44,043 nt of DNA from an uncultured Bacteroidales bacterium (GTDB lineage Bacteria > Bacteroidota > Bacteroidia > Bacteroidales > UBA10428). A program made the translations under genes and the position numbers. How positions within the stretch are numbered: the first letter of the stretch is position 1; each line of letters begins with the position of its first letter. This document shows positions 3,318 to 33,469 of the stretch, piece after piece. The notes under the pieces are model-generated. The model saw nothing but the letters and a program-made list of their open reading frames with translations, ran no database searches and was not told the origin of the DNA. The stretch spans positions 1 to 44,043 of the forward strand of contig CAYMJH010000005.1 in the NCBI GenBank assembly GCA_964390385.1, given 5' to 3'.

Positions 3318-3938
3318 ATGGATAAAAATATCAACAGGATAATTGCTTACATCGATGGTTTTAACCTGTATTTCGGCATGAAAGATGCCGGTTACGGGTA
3401 TTGTAAATGGCTCGATATAAATAAACTAATAAGGAGTTATCTTACCTCAAACCAGCAACTTATTGCCGTAAAGTATTTTACAAGCAGGGTAACCAACAAC
3501 CCGCCCAAACAAAAAAGACAGTCAACCTATATTGAAGCGTTAGAAACAACAGGCATTAAAGTCGTTTATGGTTTATATAAGGCTAAAATTATTGAATGTA
3601 TGAATTGCGGGCATTTATGGTCAATTGCCAACGAAAAAATGACCGATGTAAACATAGCAACTCATCTCATAATCGATGCATTTCAGGACAGTTATGATAC
3701 AGCAGTTCTTGTTTCGGGCGATAGCGATTTGGTACCCCCTATAAAAGCGGTGCATGAGAATTTCAACAGAAAAGCTGTTTCGGTATTCTTTCCGCCTGCA
3801 CGGCACAATGTTTCTGTGGCAGCAGCTGCCAGAGGTTCTCAGATAATAGGTCGTAAGAAACTTGTTGACAATCAGTTTCCGCCGGAAGTTAAGAAAAATA
3901 ACGGGTATATACTCCGTAAACCTACAGATTGGTTGTAA
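3318..3938 (+). CDS. NYN-domain (LabA/PIN-like) predicted ribonuclease with internal CxxC
   Basis: IAYIDGFNLYFG...YFTSRV...CMNCGHLW...EKMTDVNIATHLIIDAF...DTAVLVSGDSDLVPPIKAV is the NYN (PF01936-like) acidic-residue pattern. The ORF track start is 3291; the ATG at 3318 (MDKNINR) is more likely. Confidence 0.8.
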   Translation: MDKNINRIIAYIDGFNLYFGMKDAGYGYCKWLDINKLIRSYLTSNQQLIAVKYFTSRVTNNPPKQKRQSTYIEALETTGIKVVYGLYKAKIIECMNCGHLWSIANEKMTDVNIATHLIIDAFQDSYDTAVLVSGDSDLVPPIKAVHENFNRKAVSVFFPPARHNVSVAAAARGSQIIGRKKLVDNQFPPEVKKNNGYILRKPTDWL

Positions 3939-11741: not shown

Positions 11742-11772
11742 CGGATGATAGTCTGAATTCGTGTTGTAGACT

Positions 11773-11800
11773 GTCGACCGTCGACCGTCGACGGTCGTCT
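11773..11800 (+). repeat. tandem heptamer array (GTCGACC x2, GTCGACG, GTCGTCT)
   Basis: Read directly. Contains three GTCGAC palindromes. Confidence 0.9.
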
Positions 11801-16071: not shown

Positions 16072-16086
16072 GGAAAAGTAATCTTT

Positions 16087-16114
16087 GTCACTTGTCACTT
16101 GTCACTCGTCACTA
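16087..16114 (+). repeat. tandem heptamer array GTCACTT x2, GTCACTC, GTCACTA
   Basis: Read directly. Overlaps the stop and the last codons (..SDE*) of the minus-strand gene 16102-17616. Confidence 0.9.
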
Positions 16115-19971: not shown

Positions 19972-22011
19972 ATGCAAAAAAAATACAGGCGTCATCTTAT
20001 TACGGCGGCATTGCCCTATGCAAACGGGCCGGTTCATATCGGTCATCTCGCCGGGGTATATGTTCCTGCCGACATTTATGTCCGTTATCTTCGGATGAAA
20101 GGCGAAGATGTGATCTTCATCTGCGGCTCGGATGAGCACGGGGTGCCCATCACCATCAAAGCCCGGCAGGAGAAAGTCAGTCCACAGGACATCGTGGATA
20201 AATATCATGCCATCATCAAAAAGTCATTCGAGGAATTTGGCATTTCCTTCAGCATTTATTCACGCACCACATCGAAGGTACACTATCAGACAGCCTCCGA
20301 TTTTTTCAGCACCTTGTACAAAGGAGGCGAATTCATTGAGAAGACTTCCAGCCAGTATTATGACGAAGAGGTTAAGCAGTTCCTGGCCGACCGGTATATC
20401 ACCGGAACCTGTCCCCATTGCGGGAATGATTCAGCTTACGGAGATCAATGCGAGCGGTGCGGTACATCGCTTAACGCTACCGACCTGGTCAATCCCAGGT
20501 CGATGCTGAGCGGCAGCAAGCCGGTGATGAAAGACACTTTTCATTGGTTCCTGCCGCTGGACAGGCATGAAAAGGCCTTACGGAAGTGGATACTGGAGGA
20601 GCATAAAGACTGGAAGCCGAATGTATACGGACAATGCAAGTCGTGGCTTGATGCCGGCCTTCAGCCCCGCGCGGTCAGCCGCGATCTCGACTGGGGCATA
20701 CCGGTGCCGGTGGAAGGGGCGGAAGGAAAAGTACTGTACGTATGGTTTGATGCCCCCATAGGCTATATTTCGGCCACCCGGGAATTGCTTCCCGATGACT
20801 GGGAGAAATACTGGAAGCAGGATGATACCCGCCTGATCCATTTCATCGGCAAGGACAATATCGTATTTCACTGCATCATTTTCCCGGTGATGCTGAAAAC
20901 CCACGGGGAATACGTACTTCCCGACAACGTACCGGCCAATGAGTTCCTGAACCTCGAAGGGGATAAGATTTCGACTTCCCGCAACTGGGCGGTATGGCTT
21001 CATGAATACCTTGAGGAATTCAAGGGCAAGCAGGATGTGCTTCGGTATGTGCTTTGCGCCACCATGCCGGAGGCCAGGGACAATGATTTCACCTGGAAGG
21101 ATTTCCAGGCGCGCAACAACAACGAACTGGTAGCCATCCTGGGCAATTTCGTAAACCGTACCCTGGTGCTGACTCAGAAATACTTTGACGGTCGGGTGCC
21201 GGAACCCGGTATCATGCATGACGCCGACCAGCAGACCCTCGATGAGATAGGAAAGATTAAGCAGGCCGTTGAGGATAACCTCGATAATTTCCGATTCAGG
21301 GAAGCCCTGAAGGCAGGGATGGACCTGGCACGGCTGGGCAACAAGTACCTGGCCGATACCGAACCCTGGAAACTGATCAAAACCGATGCGGCGCGGGTCA
21401 TGACCATTCTGCACGTGTCGTTGCAGATTACGGCCAACCTGGTTATCATCATGGAGCCCTTCCTTCCGTTCACCTCGGCAAAACTGGCCGGTTACCTGAA
21501 CCTGAAGGGGCTGAGCTGGAAGGACGCCGGCAGCCTGTCGCTGCTGAAAGCAGGAGATGCCTTGAAAGAGCCCGGATTGCTGTTTGAGAAGATCGAGGAT
21601 GAGGCTGTGGAAAAACAACTGCAGAAACTGCAGAAAACCAAGGAGAGCAATGCGGGATTAAAGCCTGCCGCGAAGCCACAGAAGCCGGCCGTTACCTATG
21701 ATAATTTTGCCGCCATGGACATCCGTACGGCAACCGTGATCGAAGCCGTAAAGGTACCGAAAACCGATAAACTGATGCAGCTGAGGCTGGACACCGGCAT
21801 GGATGAACGTACCGTTGTTTCAGGTATTGCCGGGTTTTTCAGTCCCGAAGACCTGGCGGGCAAACAGGTATGCCTGCTGGCCAACCTGGAACCCCGGGTG
21901 ATCAAAGGAATCACCTCTCACGGTATGATACTGCTGGCCGAGAACGCTGACGGAAAGCTGGTGCTGGTAACACCCACGCAGGGAGTTAACAACGGCTCGG
22001 AAGTGAAATGA
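19972..22011 (+). CDS. metG: methionine--tRNA ligase with C-terminal tRNA-binding (Trbp111-like) domain
   Basis: [16 protein letters not shown] (HIGH), zinc knuckle CPHCGN...CERCG, KISTSRN (KMSKS). The ATG at 19972 is preferred over the track start at 19873. Confidence 0.97.
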
Positions 22012-22043
22012 AATTTGAAAATTTGAAGATTTGAAGATTTGAA
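22012..22043 (+). repeat. tandem octamer array (AATTTGAA x2, GATTTGAA x2)
   Basis: Starts on the base after the metG stop codon. Confidence 0.9.
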
Positions 22044-22108
22044 AGCCTTCCGGCAGGCAGGTTTGAAGGTCAGATTACGATGACATGGGTAGCAGATTGG
22101 GTATTTCT

Positions 22109-22136
22109 CCTTGTCCCTTGTCCCTTGTCCCTTCTT
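22109..22136 (+). repeat. tandem heptamer array CCTTGTC x3 plus CCTTCTT
   Basis: Ends 1 nt before the stop codon of the minus-strand SPOR gene. Confidence 0.9.
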
Positions 22137-22137
22137 C

Positions 22138-23274
22138 TTACCTTCTCATCACCCAAAGCGGAAGATCCAGTTCCTGTTTCAGCTTCCGCATTTCCGCCAT
22201 GGCTGTTTCCCTGGAATCATAGGCCTGCAAGGCGACATAGAAGAAATCGTCGTTTTTGCGAATGATAAGGGGACTGTATCCTTTTTTCTCCAGCTGGTTC
22301 TTCTGACGGTCGGCATTGCCGGGAATCAGGAAGCTTCCTGCGATGATGTGGAATTCACCTCCCGGCGTCTGCGCAGCTTCAGTGACCGCAGGTTCTGTTA
22401 AAACTGCCGGAGGTGCTGCCTGTGAAACAGCGGGCCGGAATTCAGCCTGTGTCTCCGTCATTTTTGCCGGTTCTTCATAGTATAACGCTTTTTCCTTGGA
22501 TGACTGTTCCGCCAGCCTTTGGTCGATGTCACCTGCAACCAGGCTATCATCAGAAGCATCCGCCGGCTCGGTAACAATCCTGTCGGGATTTTCTTCGCTG
22601 ATCATGGTGACAGGCTCGGCTTTAATAAACAAGGGTTTCAGGTATTGGTCAAAGAGACCGGTGAAATAAACCAGACCTGCGCCAAGCAGCACCAGGGCAG
22701 CGATAACGGCGGCCAGGGGGGGCCTGAAACGCCTTTTGGCGACAGGGTGAACAACCGGGGGGGGAAGGTTTCTCCGGGGTATTTCCGTTGCCGGCCTGGG
22801 TGGGGCGGGGATTTCCACTTCCGGCAGGCCGAAGGACTGAATCCGGAAATTCCGGCCTGAAAGGGGTTTAAATGCAAGATTTCCGCTGCTGTCCTTCATC
22901 AGGGTCCCGACCTCATCGATCAATGCCATGCCTTTTTCCTGGAGGCTCCTTTTAAGGCCCGCTAAATATTCATCCACAACCAGCCTTGCCTCTTCTTCCT
23001 CCATATTGTTTTTTGTGGCCACGCGTGATATGAGCAGACCGTTATCGGTAACCATGTGGCTGTCGAAAACGATTTCCATGGAAGGGGGATTGAACAGGTT
23101 GGAACTTTTCTGTATTTCAGCCGGGTGGTAGCGTGTGACAAAGCCTCCCAGCCCGGGAAGAATGAGTCCTTCATGATACAATATCAGGTCTTTTATGTCC
23201 GGCGCGAGATTCACAACAGTTAAAATTGAGGAATAAATATACAAGTAACAAATGTAATAAAATCCTGAGGACAT
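22138..23274 (-). CDS. HU-like N-terminal domain / Pro-rich linker / TM / C-terminal SPOR domain protein
   Basis: LILPGLGGFVTRYHPAEI (HU-CCDC81-like), TM AAVIAALVLLGAGLVYF, and C-terminal FHIIAGSF...ADRQKNQLEKKGYSP...FYVALQAY SPOR pattern. The start codon is uncertain. Confidence 0.75.
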   Translation of the reverse strand: MSSGFYYICYLYIYSSILTVVNLAPDIKDLILYHEGLILPGLGGFVTRYHPAEIQKSSNLFNPPSMEIVFDSHMVTDNGLLISRVATKNNMEEEEARLVVDEYLAGLKRSLQEKGMALIDEVGTLMKDSSGNLAFKPLSGRNFRIQSFGLPEVEIPAPPRPATEIPRRNLPPPVVHPVAKRRFRPPLAAVIAALVLLGAGLVYFTGLFDQYLKPLFIKAEPVTMISEENPDRIVTEPADASDDSLVAGDIDQRLAEQSSKEKALYYEEPAKMTETQAEFRPAVSQAAPPAVLTEPAVTEAAQTPGGEFHIIAGSFLIPGNADRQKNQLEKKGYSPLIIRKNDDFFYVALQAYDSRETAMAEMRKLKQELDLPLWVMRR

Positions 23275-26186: not shown

Positions 26187-27242
26187 ATGAAAAAGACCAT
26201 TCTGATCACAGGGGGCGCAGGTTTTATAGGCTCCCATGTCGTACGGCTTTTTGTCAGCAAGTACCCCGATTACCAGGTTGTCAACCTGGATAAGCTGACC
26301 TATGCCGGGAACCTTGAAAATCTGAAGGATATAGAATCAAAGCCGAATTACCGGTTTGTAAAAGCCGACATTATTGATGCCCTGGCCCTGCAACAGCTCT
26401 TCAGGGATTATGATTTCGACGGTGTCATCCACCTGGCAGCTGAATCGCATGTTGACAGGTCGATCACCAATCCCATGGAATTCATCCAGACCAACATCAT
26501 CGGCACTACCAATCTGCTGAACGCAGCCAGGATAGCCTGGAAGGACAAAACATCAGGCAGGGTTTTCTACCATATTTCCACCGATGAAGTGTATGGCTCG
26601 CTGGAGAAAGGAGGCTATTTTTCGGAGGAGACGGCTTATGACCCCAGGAGTCCCTATTCTGCTTCCAAGGCAGGATCGGACCACCTGGTAAGGGCTTATT
26701 ACAATACATACGGGCTTCCGGTCCTGCTTTCCAACTGTTCCAACAATTATGGTCCCAATCAGTTCCCTGAGAAGCTCATCCCGCTTGCGATCAATAACAT
26801 CCTCAACAGAAAAAGCATCCCGGTATACGGTAAGGGCGAAAACATACGCGACTGGCTTTTTGTGGAAGACCATGCCAGGGCCATCGATGTGATCTTTCAT
26901 CACGGCAGGATCGGAGAAACCTTTAATATTGGCGGCAATAACGAGTGGAAGAACATAGACCTGATCCGCATGCTTTGCAGGATCATGGATAGCAAACTGG
27001 GCAGGGCTGAAGGGGAATCGGAAAAGCTCATCACCTATGTTAAGGACAGGGCGGGGCATGATCTCCGTTACGCCATTGATGCCGGGAAGCTAAAAAGGGA
27101 TTTAGGATGGGAGCCTTCCCTTACCTTCGAGCAAGGCCTGGGCAAAACGGTCGACTGGTATCTTGAAAACAAGGAATGGCTGCAGCATGTGCTTACCGGT
27201 GACTATGAGAAGTATTATGAGCGGCAGTATGTGAAAAGGTAA
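26187..27242 (+). CDS. rfbB: dTDP-glucose 4,6-dehydratase
   Basis: MKKTILITGGAGFIGSH...DKLTYAGNLENL...STDEVYG...PYSASKA. The track ORF from 25986 is an upstream extension overlapping galE. Confidence 0.93.
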   Translation: MKKTILITGGAGFIGSHVVRLFVSKYPDYQVVNLDKLTYAGNLENLKDIESKPNYRFVKADIIDALALQQLFRDYDFDGVIHLAAESHVDRSITNPMEFIQTNIIGTTNLLNAARIAWKDKTSGRVFYHISTDEVYGSLEKGGYFSEETAYDPRSPYSASKAGSDHLVRAYYNTYGLPVLLSNCSNNYGPNQFPEKLIPLAINNILNRKSIPVYGKGENIRDWLFVEDHARAIDVIFHHGRIGETFNIGGNNEWKNIDLIRMLCRIMDSKLGRAEGESEKLITYVKDRAGHDLRYAIDAGKLKRDLGWEPSLTFEQGLGKTVDWYLENKEWLQHVLTGDYEKYYERQYVKR

Positions 27243-27243
27243 G

Positions 27244-27275
27244 AAGTGACAAGTGACAAGTGACAAGTGACGAGT
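27244..27275 (+). repeat. tandem heptamer array AAGTGAC x4 (+GAGT)
   Basis: Begins 2 nt after the rfbB stop. It is the reverse complement of the GTCACTn arrays at 27367-27394 and 16087-16114. Confidence 0.92.
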
Positions 27276-27366
27276 ATAAACCTTATTTAACTGAGATATG
27301 ATGATTTGTGATTAGGATATTTTCGAACACATTATTACCTGATGCTCTCGTCCCTTTCCTTTTCTT

Positions 27367-27394
27367 GTCACTTGTCACTAGTCACTGGTCACTA
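27367..27394 (+). repeat. tandem heptamer array GTCACTT/GTCACTA/GTCACTG/GTCACTA
   Basis: Ends 2 nt before the glmS stop codon (minus strand). Inverted relative to 27244-27271, with 25/28 bases complementary. Confidence 0.92.
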
Positions 27395-27396
27395 AT

Positions 27397-29232
27397 TCAT
27401 TCCACCGTCACCGACTTTGCCAGGTTACGGGGCTGGTCTACATTGCATCCGCGCATGACGGCGATATAATAGGAGATCAGCTGTAACGGGATCACGGCGA
27501 GCAAAGGTGTAAAGACAGGATCGGTGACCGGGATCTCAAGCACGTGGTCGGCCATTTTGGTGATGGTAGTCTCTCCTTCGTTGACAATGGCAATGACAAT
27601 ACCGTTACGTGCTTTGACCTCCTGGATATTACTGACAATTTTTTCGTAGGAAGAATCCTTGGTAGCCAGCACAACCACAGGCATCTTATGGTCGATGAGG
27701 GCGATGGGGCCGTGTTTCATTTCAGCTGCCGGGTAACCTTCGGCATGGATATAGGAGATCTCTTTCAGCTTCAGGGCTCCTTCAAGGGCCACCGGGAAGA
27801 GATAGCCCCGGCCCAGGTAGAGGAAATTATTGGCCAGTTTGTAAAGCGAGGCTATATTGCGGAACTTGTCGTTCTGGGCCAGGATTTTCTCGATTTTTTC
27901 CGGCACTTCGGTAAGTGATTTTATATAGGACCGGTATTGCTCCTGCGACATAACATTTTTCCGGCGGCCAACCAATATGGCCATCATGGCCAGCACGGTC
28001 ACCTGTGCTGTAAAGGCCTTTGTGGAAGCCACCCCGATCTCGGGACCGGCATGGGTATATACCCCGGCATCTGTTTCACGGGGGATGCTGGACCCGACAA
28101 CGTTGCAGATGCCCAATACCAGGGCGCCGGCTTCTTTGGCCAGCTTGACGGCCGCGAGGGTATCGGCGGTTTCACCGCTCTGGCTGATGGCAATTACGAC
28201 CTCTTCATGATTGATGATGGGATTGCGGTACCGGAATTCCGAGGCATATTCCACTTCCACGGGAACACGGGCCAGGTCTTCGAAGAGATATTCCCCCACA
28301 AGGCCGGCATGCCATGAAGTGCCGCAACCGATAATGACAATGCGTTTGGCAGCCACCAGACGGTCCATCACATTATAGAGGCCTCCCAGGTAAAGTTCGT
28401 TGAGATCGGCCCCAACCCTTCCGCGAAAGGTGTCCTGGATTGACCGGGGCTGTTCAAAGATCTCCTTGAGCATGAAGTGCTTGTATCCCCCTTTGTCAAT
28501 TTCCCCGATGCCCAGGTCGAGCTGGTGAATGCGGGGTGTTAGCGGGTCATTTTTCAGGGTCTTGAGCACAAGTCCGTCCTTCGAGATGATGGCAACATCA
28601 TCATCATTCAGGTAGATCACGCTCTTGGTATATTCTATTATGGGCGTGGCATCGGATGCAAGAAAGTATTCATTATTGCCGACGCCGATGACCAGGGGAC
28701 TCCCCTTGCGGGCGGCGATGAGCTTATCGGGCTCGTCGGTGCAGGCGATAACCAGTCCGTAAGCCCCCACCACCTTCGACAGGGCAAGCCTTACCGCTAT
28801 TTCGGCACTGGTTTTCCCCTGTTCGTATATGTGCTCAATGAGATTGACCAGTACCTCGGAATCGGTTTCACTCTGAAATTTGATGCCCATGGATAACAAG
28901 GTTTCCTTAAGCCGGGCGTAGTTCTCAATAATGCCGTTGTGTATGAGGATGAACTTGCCATGAAAGGATTTGTGGGGATGGGCGTTGACATCATTGGGTT
29001 CGCCATGAGTTGCCCAGCGTGTATGGCCCATTCCGATGGACCCTGAAACATTGTTGCCCGTGATGTAGCGTTCAAGGTCTGAAACCTTGCCTTTGCACTT
29101 ATAAACACTGGTAGGATGGTTCACGATGGCGATGCCTGCCGAGTCATAGCCCCGGTATTCAAGCCTTTTGAGACCATTGATCAGCACATTATAGGCATCA
29201 CGATAACCGATATATCCAACAATTCCACACAT
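27397..29232 (-). CDS. glmS: glutamine--fructose-6-phosphate aminotransferase
   Basis: MCGIVGYIG N-terminal nucleophile, two SIS domains, C-terminal ...NLAKSVTVE. Confidence 0.97.
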   Translation of the reverse strand: MCGIVGYIGYRDAYNVLINGLKRLEYRGYDSAGIAIVNHPTSVYKCKGKVSDLERYITGNNVSGSIGMGHTRWATHGEPNDVNAHPHKSFHGKFILIHNGIIENYARLKETLLSMGIKFQSETDSEVLVNLIEHIYEQGKTSAEIAVRLALSKVVGAYGLVIACTDEPDKLIAARKGSPLVIGVGNNEYFLASDATPIIEYTKSVIYLNDDDVAIISKDGLVLKTLKNDPLTPRIHQLDLGIGEIDKGGYKHFMLKEIFEQPRSIQDTFRGRVGADLNELYLGGLYNVMDRLVAAKRIVIIGCGTSWHAGLVGEYLFEDLARVPVEVEYASEFRYRNPIINHEEVVIAISQSGETADTLAAVKLAKEAGALVLGICNVVGSSIPRETDAGVYTHAGPEIGVASTKAFTAQVTVLAMMAILVGRRKNVMSQEQYRSYIKSLTEVPEKIEKILAQNDKFRNIASLYKLANNFLYLGRGYLFPVALEGALKLKEISYIHAEGYPAAEMKHGPIALIDHKMPVVVLATKDSSYEKIVSNIQEVKARNGIVIAIVNEGETTITKMADHVLEIPVTDPVFTPLLAVIPLQLISYYIAVMRGCNVDQPRNLAKSVTVE

Positions 29233-29395: not shown

Positions 29396-30214
29396 TCATT
29401 TGTGATGGGTATTGAGAATACGGTCATAAAAATCGGAATAGGCGTCGATATACTTCTCCGCAGGCTGATAAGGTAAAAGAGGGATACCCGATTTTTTGAT
29501 ATAACTTGTAATTTCAGGCGCAATATGCTGACTACCGATAATAATACCATCTGACATATTGATGGCCAGCTTGCACATATTAACGTAAGTAGGGTTCTCA
29601 ATCACAGCAAGGTCTTTTTCCGGGATATCGTCCTGCAGCATTTTTTTCCGCAATGCTTTATTGAGTGATTTCGGAAACTCGTTATTGTAGATCGACAGCA
29701 CTATTTTGGAACGCTTGAAAATGGGATCGTCCTGATAGACCCTTTTGATATAAACGGGCAGCAGCGAAGAGAACCAGCTGTGGCAATGGATCAGGTCAGG
29801 GGCCCATTGCAATTTTTTTACCGTTTCCGCAACACCGCGTGCAAAAAAAACAGCCCTTTCGTCATTGTCGTCGAAAAAGGCTCCCTTTTCATCCTGCAAT
29901 ATGTATTTTCGCTGAAAATAGTCCTCGTTATCAATGAAGTAGATCTGCATACGGGCTGCCTGTATGGAGGCAACCTTGATGATCAGCGGATGGTCGGTGT
30001 CATCAATGATGATATTCATCCCTGAAAGACGAATAACCTCGTGGAGCTGGTTTCTCCGTTCATTGATGCAACCGAATTTTGGCATGAACGTCCTGATCTC
30101 CCGTCCTTTTTCCTGGATCCCCTGCGGAAGGTTCCTGCCGATCAGTGACATTTCTGATTCAGGTAGATAAGGAGTAATTTCCTGGGATACGAACAGTACT
30201 TTCGAACCTGCCAT
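29396..30214 (-). CDS. short glycogen/starch synthase-like protein (GT5 N-terminal domain type)
   Basis: KVLFVSQEITPY...GREIRTFMPKFG...DLIHCHSWFSSLLP pattern of starch-synthase catalytic domain proteins. Confidence 0.8.
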   Translation of the reverse strand: MAGSKVLFVSQEITPYLPESEMSLIGRNLPQGIQEKGREIRTFMPKFGCINERRNQLHEVIRLSGMNIIIDDTDHPLIIKVASIQAARMQIYFIDNEDYFQRKYILQDEKGAFFDDNDERAVFFARGVAETVKKLQWAPDLIHCHSWFSSLLPVYIKRVYQDDPIFKRSKIVLSIYNNEFPKSLNKALRKKMLQDDIPEKDLAVIENPTYVNMCKLAINMSDGIIIGSQHIAPEITSYIKKSGIPLLPYQPAEKYIDAYSDFYDRILNTHHK

Positions 30215-30305
30215 TTAGCTCTGCTATGTTTCCGTAAGAATGATCCGCAAAGTTACTAAAAAATATTAACATTTCCATAGAAGTGAAGGATAAACCTTTA
30301 ATGGT

Positions 30306-30417
30306 GAGCCAAGAGCCAAGAGCCAAGAGCCAAGATCTAAGATCTAAGATCTAAGATCTAAGATCCAAGATGTAAGACAAAAGAACAAAGAATAAAGAAC
30401 AAAGATTTTCGATATTC
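30306..30417 (+). repeat. 16-unit heptamer tract: GAGCCAA x4, GATCTAA x4, then drifting GAnnnAA units
   Basis: Strict 7-nt phase kept across gagccaa(4) gatctaa(4) gatccaa gatgtaa gacaaaa gaacaaa gaataaa gaacaaa gattttc gatattc. Confidence 0.92.
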
Positions 30418-30418
30418 A

Positions 30419-30470
30419 ATCACCCCTCCTTCTCCCGATGAATCGGGATTCGGAGGGCAAAGCAAATCAC
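30419..30470 (-). repeat. 52-bp palindromic (REP-like) element, copy 1
   Basis: atcacccctccttctcccgatgaatcgggattcggagggcaaagcaaatcac. Nested stems ccctcc/ggaggg and tcccga/tcggga with symmetric ttc/ttc internal loops. Overlaps the tcdA stop codon. Confidence 0.88.
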
Positions 30471-31213
30471 CGGATAACCCCAAGCAGGTCACGGATGACC
30501 ACTGAGGCGCAATAGCAACCAAAAACCGGGGGCATATAGGAGATGGTGCCCACCACCGAGCGTTTGTTTTCCTCTCCGCTCACTTCCCTGACCGTTTCTT
30601 TGGCCACCGGCTCGGGAGAATAAACCACCGTAATGCCGGTGCGGACACCCAGTCGATGCAGGTATTTACGGACTATATAGGCAAAACGGCAATGGTGCGA
30701 TTCAGCTATGTCGGCGACCCTGATCTTCTCGGGATGCAGACGGCCGCCGGAACCCATGGAACTGACAACACGATGGCCTTTTTTTACGGCGCCGGCAAGC
30801 AAATGCACTTTCGGCGTAAGGGTGTCGATGGCATCCACAACATAGTCATAGCTATGGTCGAGGACAGGAGCAAACTGGTCTTCTTTCAGATAGGCGTTAA
30901 CCACTTCAATTTCAATGGCCGGGTTTATGTCGTTCAGACGGCCGGCCATGGCATCCGCCTTTTTCATGCCTTCATTGCTCAACAAGGCAAGGATCTGGCG
31001 GTTACGGTTGGAAAAATGAATGGTGTCGCCGTCGATCAGTGTTAATTTGCCAATACCTGCCCGGCACAGCATTTCGGCTGCATAGCCTCCCACGCCGCCC
31101 AATCCTGCCACCAGTACGTGGGAACGGGAAAGCTTGCCGATACCTTCCTCTCCTATGAGCAATGATGTTCTTTCTGTCCAGTTTTCCATACCTTTTAAGG
31201 TGTGCCGAAGCAA
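30467..31213 (-). CDS. tcdA: tRNA threonylcarbamoyladenosine dehydratase (ThiF/E1-like)
   Basis: VLVAGLGGVGGYAAEMLCRAGIGKLTLIDGDTIHFSNRNRQ. An alternative start MENWTERT at 31189 would remove the overlap with tatD. Confidence 0.85.
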   Translation of the reverse strand: MLRHTLKGMENWTERTSLLIGEEGIGKLSRSHVLVAGLGGVGGYAAEMLCRAGIGKLTLIDGDTIHFSNRNRQILALLSNEGMKKADAMAGRLNDINPAIEIEVVNAYLKEDQFAPVLDHSYDYVVDAIDTLTPKVHLLAGAVKKGHRVVSSMGSGGRLHPEKIRVADIAESHHCRFAYIVRKYLHRLGVRTGITVVYSPEPVAKETVREVSGEENKRSVVGTISYMPPVFGCYCASVVIRDLLGVIR

Positions 31214-31866: not shown

Positions 31867-31906
31867 GTTTACAGGTTTACAGATTGACAGGTTTACAGAT
31901 TCAGAT
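31867..31906 (+). repeat. tandem ~16-bp repeat (gtttacag, gtttacagattgacag, gtttacagattcagat)
   Basis: Read directly. Located between the tatD start and the gltX stop. Confidence 0.85.
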
Positions 31907-33469
31907 CACCCCTCCTTCTCCCGGTTTATCGGGATTCGGAGGGCAAAGCAAATCACTCAATAAATGAACGCCCGTGTTGATTCTTCTGCATGTTTCTTCT
32001 TTACCCAGCAGGGCCATGACATCAGCCAGGTGCGGTCCAAAGGAACCTCCCACCAGCAGCAGCCGCAAGGGATTCATGATCTTTCCCATGCCGGTCTGCC
32101 GTTTTTCGGCGTAATCCTTTATGGCATTTTCGATGTTTACTGCAGCGAAAGGATCAATACCGGCCAACAATACCGTCAGGTCTTGCATCAGGACCGAAGA
32201 ATCTTCCTTCCAGGCCTTTTTAACCGTAGCGGGATCATATTCCTTTGGGGGTACAAAGAAGAAAGAAGATTCTTTCCATAGGTCATGCAGAAAGAACGCT
32301 CTTTCCCTGACCTGAACCACAATCTTTTCCACCGTTGCAAAGTCGGTTGTTATGCCCTTGCTTTCCAGCAGCGGAACAAAAGATTCGGCAAGTTCCTTAT
32401 GGCTTTTCTGCCTGAGGTATTGCTGATTGTACCACCTGGCTTTTTCCGGATCAAAGCGTGCGCCGGCCTTCCCCACCCGGTCAAGCGAAAATGCCTCTGC
32501 CAGCTCTTGAAGTGAGAAGACCTCCTGGTCAGTGCCCGGATTCCAGCCCAGCAAGGCCAGCATATTGACTACGGCTTCGGGGAAATAACCCGACTCGCGG
32601 TACCCGGAAGACAGTTCACCGGTTTCGGGATCCTTCCACTCCAGCGGGAATACCGGGAATCCCATTTTGTCCCCGTCACGTTTGCTCAGCTTGCCCTGGC
32701 CGCTTGGTTTCAGTATGAGCGGCAGGTGGGCAAACCGCGGCATTTGCCTTTCCCAGCCAAAAGCTTTGTAGAGCAATACATGCAGGGGAAGCGATGGCAG
32801 CCATTCCTCTCCCCTGATGACGTGGCTTATTTCCATCAGGTAATCGTCGGTGACGTTGGCCAGATGATAGGTAGGCAGTCCGTCGGATTTAAACAGCACC
32901 TTGTCATCGAGGGCAGCGGTATGAAAGCTGACCCTGCCGCGGATCAGATCGTCGACCTGTATTTCTTCGTTTTCAGGGATCTTAAATCTTACCACGTAAG
33001 GAATTCCGCTGCTGATAAGCCGTTTCGTTTCCGCTTCCCCCAGGGCAAGGGAGTTCTTCAGGCTTTTTCTTACCGAAAGGTCGTATTGAAAAGTTCTGCC
33101 CTCTGTTTCAGCCTGTTTTCTCATAGCCTCTATTTCATCGGGTGTATCAAACGCCAGGTAGGCGTTTCCCGACTGGAGCAACCGGTCGGCATATTGCCGG
33201 TAAATATCTTTTCTCTCCGATTGCCGGTAGGGCTGATGAGGACCTCCGACGCCGGGCCCTTCGTCGAATGACATGTGGCACCAGCGAAGAGACTCTGTTA
33301 TATATTCCTCGGTTCCCGGCACATAGCGTGACTGGTCGGTGTCTTCAATCCTGAGGATAAATTTTCCCTTATGTTTAAGGGCAAAAAGGTAATTGAACAG
33401 GGCTGTCCGCAATCCTCCGATATGCAGGGGACCGGTAGGACTGGGGGCAAATCTGACGCGTACTGACAT
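31901..33469 (-). CDS. gltX: glutamate--tRNA ligase
   Basis: MSVRVRFAPSPTGPLHIGGLRTALFNYLFA (HIGH), KLSKRDG (KMSKS). ATG at 33469. The C-terminal tail LLCPPNPDKPGEGGVI is encoded by the REP-like element. Confidence 0.95.
   Translation of the reverse strand: MSVRVRFAPSPTGPLHIGGLRTALFNYLFALKHKGKFILRIEDTDQSRYVPGTEEYITESLRWCHMSFDEGPGVGGPHQPYRQSERKDIYRQYADRLLQSGNAYLAFDTPDEIEAMRKQAETEGRTFQYDLSVRKSLKNSLALGEAETKRLISSGIPYVVRFKIPENEEIQVDDLIRGRVSFHTAALDDKVLFKSDGLPTYHLANVTDDYLMEISHVIRGEEWLPSLPLHVLLYKAFGWERQMPRFAHLPLILKPSGQGKLSKRDGDKMGFPVFPLEWKDPETGELSSGYRESGYFPEAVVNMLALLGWNPGTDQEVFSLQELAEAFSLDRVGKAGARFDPEKARWYNQQYLRQKSHKELAESFVPLLESKGITTDFATVEKIVVQVRERAFFLHDLWKESSFFFVPPKEYDPATVKKAWKEDSSVLMQDLTVLLAGIDPFAAVNIENAIKDYAEKRQTGMGKIMNPLRLLLVGGSFGPHLADVMALLGKEETCRRINTGVHLLSDLLCPPNPDKPGEGGVI
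31905..31956 (-). repeat. 52-bp palindromic (REP-like) element, copy 2
   Basis: atcacccctccttctcccggtttatcgggattcggagggcaaagcaaatcac. Identical to copy 1 except for the apical loop (ggtttatc vs gatgaatc). Lies inside the last ~18 codons of the gltX ORF. Confidence 0.88.

Follow-up and report, generated by a model that had tools for sequence, protein, structure and literature searches.

A phase-keeping heptamer tract between tcdA and a glycogen-synthase-like gene in an uncultured Bacteroidales genome, one of several hundred 7- and 8-nt arrays

The tcdA intergenic region and its heptamer tract

The window (the whole stretch of DNA that was analyzed, 44,043 nucleotides) is the complete contig C5 of a Bacteroidales MAG, referred to here as G000 (4.24 Mb, 446 contigs, 47% GC). 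A non-coding tract of heptamers lies there between two minus-strand genes, within the following arrangement.

29396..30214, minus strand: short glycogen/starch-synthase-like gene (Glyco_transf_5, 272 aa; Pfam PF08323, E 2e-51)
30248..30255, minus strand: inferred -7 promoter box TAACTTTG of the glycogen-synthase-like gene (TAnnTTTG consensus)
30293..30302, minus strand: anchor block AACCTTTAAT, bounding the array on the promoter side
30306-30417, non-coding: heptamer tract, 112 bases, 16 consecutive in-phase 7-nt units
30306..30333, no strand assigned: perfect sub-array 1, GAGCCAA x4, a unit type common to relatives at the same anchor
30334..30361, no strand assigned: perfect sub-array 2, GATCTAA x4 (AAGATCT in the other register), containing AGATCT palindromes
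30362..30417, no strand assigned: degenerate tail of eight in-phase units, GATCCAA, GATGTAA, GACAAAA, GAACAAA, GAATAAA, GAACAAA, GATTTTC, GATATTC
30419..30470, minus strand: REP-like GC-rich nested hairpin, stems 30424-30429/30452-30457 and 30434-30439/30442-30447
30467..31213, minus strand: tcdA (ThiF family, tRNA threonylcarbamoyladenosine dehydratase; Pfam PF00899, E 9e-39; homologues named in their sources)

On the minus strand, the tcdA stop codon (30467-30469) is followed by the hairpin, the T-rich tract, AACCTTTAAT, TAACTTTG and the start codon of the glycogen-synthase-like gene, and the position given in the initial annotation, between the tcdA 3' end with its REP-like element and the gene starting at 30214, matches the ORFs and the hairpin found. 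The hairpin (30424-30457) begins 10 nt past the tcdA stop, and the tract lies 49 nt from that stop with the hairpin in between. The likely start of tcdA is at 31189, and the database form of the protein has 240 aa. The 3' end of tcdA and the bases just beyond it (30460-30500) carry AAATCACC-like short repeats, which differ in Logan contig L092, where TcdA is otherwise identical.

The description of the tract as sixteen phase-keeping heptamers, unit by unit as listed above, proved to be an exact reading of 30306-30417. Positions 1 and 2 of the unit are invariably G and A, and positions 6 and 7 are A in 14 of the 16 units; expressed in the AAGAnnn register, AAGA is constant and the last three bases vary. 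TRF reported a period of 7 (also 14 and 21) across 30306-30405, and identity at lag 7 was 0.83, compared with 0.24-0.33 at other lags, multiples of 7 excepted, and with a mean of 0.31 in 10,000 shuffles of the tract (sd 0.04, maximum 0.49), corresponding to z = 12.9. The tract is not an artefact of this assembly, because an independent Logan assembly contig (L091) reproduces the promoter region, the left junction and four GAGCCAA units before it ends; two same-species Logan contigs, found by identical protein, stop at or before the tract. As single-stranded DNA, the GATCTAA block has a predicted fold of -5.6 kcal/mol (z -2.6), and self-pairing of AGATCT may favor slipped structures. Analysis of coding potential found only short ORFs clipping the ends of the tract, whose unit of 7 is not a multiple of 3, and Rfam covariance models run over 29900-30800 gave zero matches up to E = 1. 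A structured RNA at the tract was rejected on the basis of this Rfam result and of a fold z-score (-2.1) that could be traced to the REP hairpin and to AGAUCU self-pairing.

The region between the array and the glycogen-synthase-like gene includes two conserved blocks. The AACCTTTAAT anchor, 3 nt beyond which the array begins, is kept in G000, in its relative G004 and in L099, and shows one change in G006. The TAACTTTG box is invariant in G004, G006, G024 and L099, and the version found in G014 still fits TAnnTTTG, which is given as the Bacteroidetes -7 consensus in PMC7366714. We infer that TAACTTTG belongs to the promoter of the glycogen-synthase-like gene, because it fits this consensus, is conserved in relatives and lies in a 25-nt block that recurs before start codons. 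A metagenome scan with the 25-nt block recovered two orthologous loci, and five other matches correspond to a widespread promoter. The block (window 30239-30270) precedes a start codon at similar spacing in distant Bacteroidia (L190, L193 and L194), where pantoate-beta-alanine-ligase-like sequence lies on its far side. With the putative -7 box at 30255-30248, the tract is located about 50 nt upstream of it, at roughly -60 to -170, and would therefore fall outside the core promoter; the suggestion that the tract is part of that promoter accordingly finds no support as far as the core is concerned, also because relatives have the same promoter block without an array. A sigma-70 promoter scan returned nothing relevant, the sigma-70 model being unsuited to Bacteroidota. 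A terminator consensus scan did not call the hairpin, and an intrinsic terminator was rejected since the hairpin is present but has no T-run within 2 nt of its stem.

Heptamer and octamer arrays in the genome and the genus

Whole-genome TRF returned 808 period-7 and 583 period-8 rows, of which 493 and 329, respectively, had a score of at least 40, compared with 1 and 0 in a third-order Markov simulation matched to G000 in size. When merged, the rows form 817 tracts of 7- or 8-nt units, which together make up 0.96% of the genome; their median length is 40 bp, and 46 of them reach 100 bp or more. This count is a lower bound, with 157 tracts sitting at contig ends, and the arrays are probably the cause of much of the fragmentation of the assembly. 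The initial annotation had counted a lack of similar phased tracts elsewhere in the genome against its reading; about 800 are present, but their abundance makes the tract generic rather than special. Taken alone it matters little, as a typical if somewhat long representative of repeats that make up about 1% of the genome.

These arrays are predominantly intergenic. About 87% of the tracts have their midpoint outside crude ORFs, which span 85% of the DNA, and 91% of the period-7 rows are mostly outside them, the gene calls being crude longest-ORF predictions with exact stops and inexact starts. Convergent gene pairs have an excess of tracts between them (178) and divergent pairs a deficit (71). 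In tandem contexts they lie closer to the upstream stop (median 29 nt) than to the next start, and 135 of 305 are within 20 nt of the stop. Some further features concern the arrays that abut stop codons, such as those at 27244-27275, 22011-22044, 16085-16113 and 11769-11797 of the window. Among arrays starting 10 nt or less from a stop, the sense strand is the purine-rich one in 94 of 110, and individual units are strongly oriented (AAGTGAC 33:1, AATCGGT 20:1, AAGGGAC 13:0); at convergent gene pairs this orientation follows the gene and not replication. Arrays more than 30 nt from the stop, among them the tract, have no orientation bias.

Well over 100 unit types occur in the genome, mostly A/T-rich and without G4 potential. 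The AAGATCn (AAGAnnn) family to which the tract belongs accounts for 40 tracts, many of which change their unit block-wise in phase, as in AAGATCA x4, AAGATTA x4, AAGATCA x3 on contig C6. More broadly, 31 of the 212 heptamer loci with a perfect run of at least three units (~15%) have two or more such runs, as the tract does. The two-block, in-phase pattern of the tract is thus generic in this genome, given both the block switches within the 40-tract family and the proportion of loci with multiple runs.

Two genome-level explanations were considered and rejected. Loss of mismatch repair as the cause of the abundance does not apply, MutS1 and MutL being present across the genus and in the outgroups and mutS being merely split in G000. 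The split runs over C315 and C316, and the far end of C315 (3,936 bases) is itself an AAAGATC array (3874-3936). A role for GATC and Dam was also discarded, because GATC is not avoided (observed/expected 1.1 by Markov estimate) and arrays contain 1.2% of GATC sites in 1.0% of the DNA. Nor was an inverted partner array that could form a long hairpin with the tract found within 1 kb; genome-wide, 6 of 209 neighboring tract pairs are inverted copies of the same unit.

The richness in arrays is shared across the genus and is otherwise phylogenetically sporadic. In samples of 100-200 kb per relative, eight congeners had 40-135 period-7 and period-8 rows per Mb, compared with 194 per Mb in G000, and samples of four other families of the order had 0-20. 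A further 651 kb, drawn from 80 other Bacteroidia, had its arrays concentrated in a small number of lineages, among which Anaerophaga thermohalophila stands out and could offer a tractable organism for the study of such repeats. An 8.8-kb locus (L073) of strain DSM 12881 of this species, a cultured member of the Marinilabiliaceae, has six TRF rows of 7 or 8 nt, and L019 may be seen alongside it.

A second genome-wide pattern involves small genes of the S23p family (PF05635), which encode four-helix-bundle, Avd-like proteins. Of the 10 PF05635 genes in G000, 6 have 7- or 8-nt arrays within 250 nt on both sides, as do 79 of 3178 crude genes (2.5%). Two-sided flanking was likewise seen at 22 of 30 S23p loci in the genus, and in most of these the right arm is the reverse complement of a purine-rich left arm. 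The bracketed genes of G000 are found on C87, C125, C13, C298 and C399 (genus loci L208-L237), the clearest case being C125:10698-11324, where 12 and 16 units surround the gene. The units forming the arms in G000 (AAGTGAC, AATCGGT, AACTTCT and AAAATTTG) belong to the most frequent families of the genome; in G009 (L236), S23p genes have AAGATC-type arrays beside them, and matches of the tract flank S23p genes in G012 and G015. Of the outgroup genomes, three showed no arrays in the sample and lack S23p genes, and another, with few arrays, has three such genes; the comparison covers few and related genomes. One could suppose that the 7- and 8-nt arrays of the genus, AAGATCn included, are more than simple products of slippage and belong to an S23p/PF05635 system of which solo arrays are offshoots or targets, and that this system may spread, maintain or bind the unit families of the cassette arms, but we regard this as doubtful. 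It is not adopted here as the explanation of the tract, because the genomes compared are few and related and because the tract locus has neither a partner arm within 1 kb nor any of the 10 PF05635 genes on its contig. The association is nevertheless the one part of these results that could be of wider importance, and it might help to explain why bacteria favor 7-nt repeats, a question open since 2007.

Turnover at the orthologous site and the origin of the tract

Same-genus relatives, with 83-86% identity in the flanking genes, allowed the history of the site to be followed. At least four species of the genus have an array starting from the AACCTTTAAT anchor, with unit numbers and sequences that differ between them, and GAGCCAA, GAGCCAG or GAGGCAA units occur at the orthologous site of G006, G004 and L099.

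G006, at the anchor: six heptamers, GAGCCAA, GAGTCAA, GAACCAA, GAGCCAA, then two degenerate units
G004 species, at the anchor: three to four heptamers (GAGCCAG, GAACCAG, GAATCAA), then five or six 8-nt units
L099, at the anchor: GAGGCAA x2, then a degenerate run

G024, G014 and L192, which share the promoter block, lack an array there. The GATCTAA block, for its part, is specific to the G000 species. Its origin in situ is the parsimonious reading of the sequence, because unit 9 (GATCCAA) is intermediate, one substitution away from GAGCCAA and one from GATCTAA. Whole-unit change can be seen between strains of the sister species G004, for which six contigs from different samples encode identical TcdA. 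The intergenic region measures 192 nt in four of them; the other two have alleles of 199 nt, longer by exactly one heptamer, and of 214 nt, with that same extra heptamer and also a different hairpin element. The proposal that units have repeatedly expanded and been replaced is supported by the other unit numbers and sequences at the same anchor in relatives, by the one-heptamer difference within the sister species and by the intermediate unit 9. Two other array-bearing spacers of the window (27244-27393 and 22011-22133) have no array at the orthologous sites of G004, G006 and G024, so array turnover is fast in general and the tract locus unusually persistent. At these sites (spacers 27225-27410 and 22000-22150, in G004:C7, G006:C88 and G024:C104), GC-rich palindromic elements of the types CCCCCT...AGGGGG and CCTCCCCTTAGGGGAGG are present, and arrays and such elements seem interchangeable as post-stop filler.

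The REP-like hairpin is itself repeated. BLAST of the element in G000 gave 20 matches, several of them partial, 11 of which touch a scored 7- or 8-nt tract, and several further copies have unscored short arrays alongside. The degenerate tail of the tract together with its hairpin resembles sites on C17 and C140. Hairpin copies (window 30419-30470 and 31905-31956; C146, C355, C140, C17, C113, C49 and C1) usually lie just past a stop codon, most are flanked on one or both sides by short arrays of 7-, 8- or 9-nt units, and arrays of AAATCACC-type units look as if grown out of the element's own end. At the tract site of the sister species, contigs L094 and L096 have identical TcdA and the same array but different hairpins after the tcdA stop, and hairpins are therefore exchanged independently of arrays. 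Carriage of the array by the REP-like element was rejected, other hairpin copies having other units and the sister species swapping the hairpin while keeping the array.

These data are best accounted for, with a probability that we put at about three in four, by the tract being a non-coding heptanucleotide SSR array that gains and loses whole units by slippage, with no special role as a control element. The site would be an unconstrained spacer between the post-tcdA hairpin and the promoter of the glycogen-synthase-like gene, where slipped-strand mispairing or unequal exchange can lengthen or shorten an array, always in whole units. Point mutations would create variant units, and a variant lying beside an identical copy could expand into a new perfect block, whereas units that no longer match their neighbors would stop slipping and decay. 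The expected outcome is two young perfect blocks and an older degenerate tail in a single 7-nt phase. The phase would be kept without selection on periodicity, because gain or loss of whole units preserves it by construction and substitutions leave it unchanged; the selection on periodicity that had been invoked is thus not needed, some 800 other tracts being alike. No sign that the tract controls its neighbors was seen, and its effect on the expression of both is predicted to be near-neutral. Two observations sit less easily with this reading. Persistence of the array at the anchor in at least four species could reflect some constraint or continual regeneration and counts against the simple form of the explanation, and local slippage alone does not explain unit families that recur at unlinked sites, across species and flanking S23p genes.

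Other readings give the tract a function or a foreign origin. It could be an upstream cis-regulatory module of the glycogen-synthase-like gene, in which an A/T-rich array, UP-like or bound by an activator, would set promoter strength through its number of units, as a contingency-type switch. The tract does start 50 nt upstream of the conserved -7 box and adjoins a conserved block, the array is kept at its anchor in at least four species and varies in unit number among sister-species strains, and three units (21 bp) make two helical turns. However, the unit sequence is not conserved, G004 even changing to 8-nt units, and G024, G014 and L192 manage with the promoter block and no array. The tract also lies neither between promoter elements nor in a reading frame, the gene encodes a housekeeping-type enzyme and not a surface factor, and the hundreds of similar arrays are mostly at gene 3' ends and not at promoters, all of which makes a regulatory module unlikely. 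The tract could also be the T-rich 3' tail of a tcdA terminator or 3'-UTR module, in which the hairpin and the pyrimidine-rich array would work together at the RNA level to terminate the transcript, protect its 3' end or insulate it from the downstream promoter. The best argument for such a role is that the succession of stop, hairpin and sense-strand T-rich array recurs at other hairpin copies; in addition, arrays 30-120 nt from a stop lean to C over G on the sense strand (GC skew -0.23 to -0.29), and the sense strand of the tract has 53 T compared with 19 A. Yet no T-run directly follows the stem, the consensus scan calls no terminator, Rfam gives no match, array orientation 30-60 nt from the stop is about even (19:25) and the units differ between hairpin copies, so that an RNA-level module appears quite unlikely.

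Import of the tract with a mobile element, as the tail of the REP-like hairpin or as a solo arm of an S23p (PF05635) cassette, draws on the short arrays beside most of the 20 hairpin matches (several partial), on the match of tail and hairpin to C17 and C140, on the bracketing of S23p genes by arrays on both sides (6 of 10 in G000 and 22 of 30 loci across the genus, compared with 2.5% for genes as a whole in G000) and on the AAGATC-type arms around such genes in G009, G012 and G015. Against it, arrays at different hairpin copies have different units, and the sister species exchanges its hairpin while the array stays. GAGCCAA units are ancestral at the site, with a one-step in-situ path to GATCTAA, and the locus lacks both an inverted partner within 1 kb and an S23p gene on the same contig. 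We consider import quite unlikely. Under the slippage reading that we prefer, the value of the tract is that of a well-documented example of array evolution, in which perfect blocks of recent origin and a tail in decay stand beside an old anchor and strains differ by single units.

Relation to known heptamer repeats

The tract is an ordinary heptanucleotide SSR array, a known though unexplained class of bacterial repeat. As in other heptanucleotide SSRs and STRR-like repeats, at least three units stand in phase, arrays are in excess genome-wide, they are intergenic or stop-adjacent, and the same site in relatives has an array of different length and sequence. Heptamers are the commonest long SSRs in prokaryotes, and polymerase slippage has been proposed as their source (Mrazek, Guo and Shah 2007, as reported in PMC4679880). 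Judged from that account, those SSRs resemble the present arrays in their tandem 7-nt units, genome-wide excess, mostly intergenic location and sporadic phylogenetic distribution, but the arrays described here reach ~190 rows per Mb and ~1% of the genome, with 8-nt units nearly as common as 7-nt units. The present genus is not among the lineages named in the heptamer-repeat literature cited here, and with our results the lineages in which heptamer and octamer repeats abound come to include an uncultured genus of the Bacteroidales.

The heptamers of Xanthomonas (GGGAATC) and Nostoc (GGGGA(C/T)T) prefer about four units, lie at or over stop codons and occupy the same intergenic sites in related species with variable length and sequence (Rehm et al. 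2015, PMC4692102). All three properties recur among the arrays of this genome; on the other hand, theirs are essentially one G-rich, quadruplex-prone unit per genome, whereas here there are more than 100 unit types, mostly A/T-rich, and the tract itself has 16 units and stands behind a hairpin, not at the stop. The STRR heptamers of the cyanobacterium Calothrix PCC 7601, as described in PMC4692102, comprise several heptamer families dispersed as short non-coding arrays, as is the case here; the likeness is one of description, and both the phylum and the units differ from those of the tract. TAACTGA direct repeats have been reported in Beggiatoaceae, Cyanobacteria and five Bacteroidetes (MacGregor 2015, PMC4679880), and in Gramella and Aequorivita long heptamer arrays share an intergenic region with other heptamers (PMC4679880). 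These are intergenic heptamer arrays like the tract, but TAACTGA lies just upstream of start codons in a fixed orientation, whereas the tract has another unit and is separated from the start codon by more than 90 nt.

Phase-variable SSRs, as in Haemophilus influenzae (PMC2651432, PMC12721329), share with the tract an intergenic position beside a promoter and a change in unit number attributed to slippage. They act, however, from the promoter spacer, the 5'-UTR or the reading frame of surface or host-interaction genes, whereas the tract, with hundreds of others like it in the genome, lies beyond the core promoter of the metabolic gene next to it. A contingency locus was accordingly rejected, the tract lying 50 nt upstream of the -7 box and outside both ORFs, with ThiF/TcdA and Glyco_transf_5 proteins encoded on either side, neither of them a surface, restriction-modification or host-interaction factor. 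Among these systems, the 16 units at the tcdA site thus take their place as a somewhat long member of the heptanucleotide SSR class.
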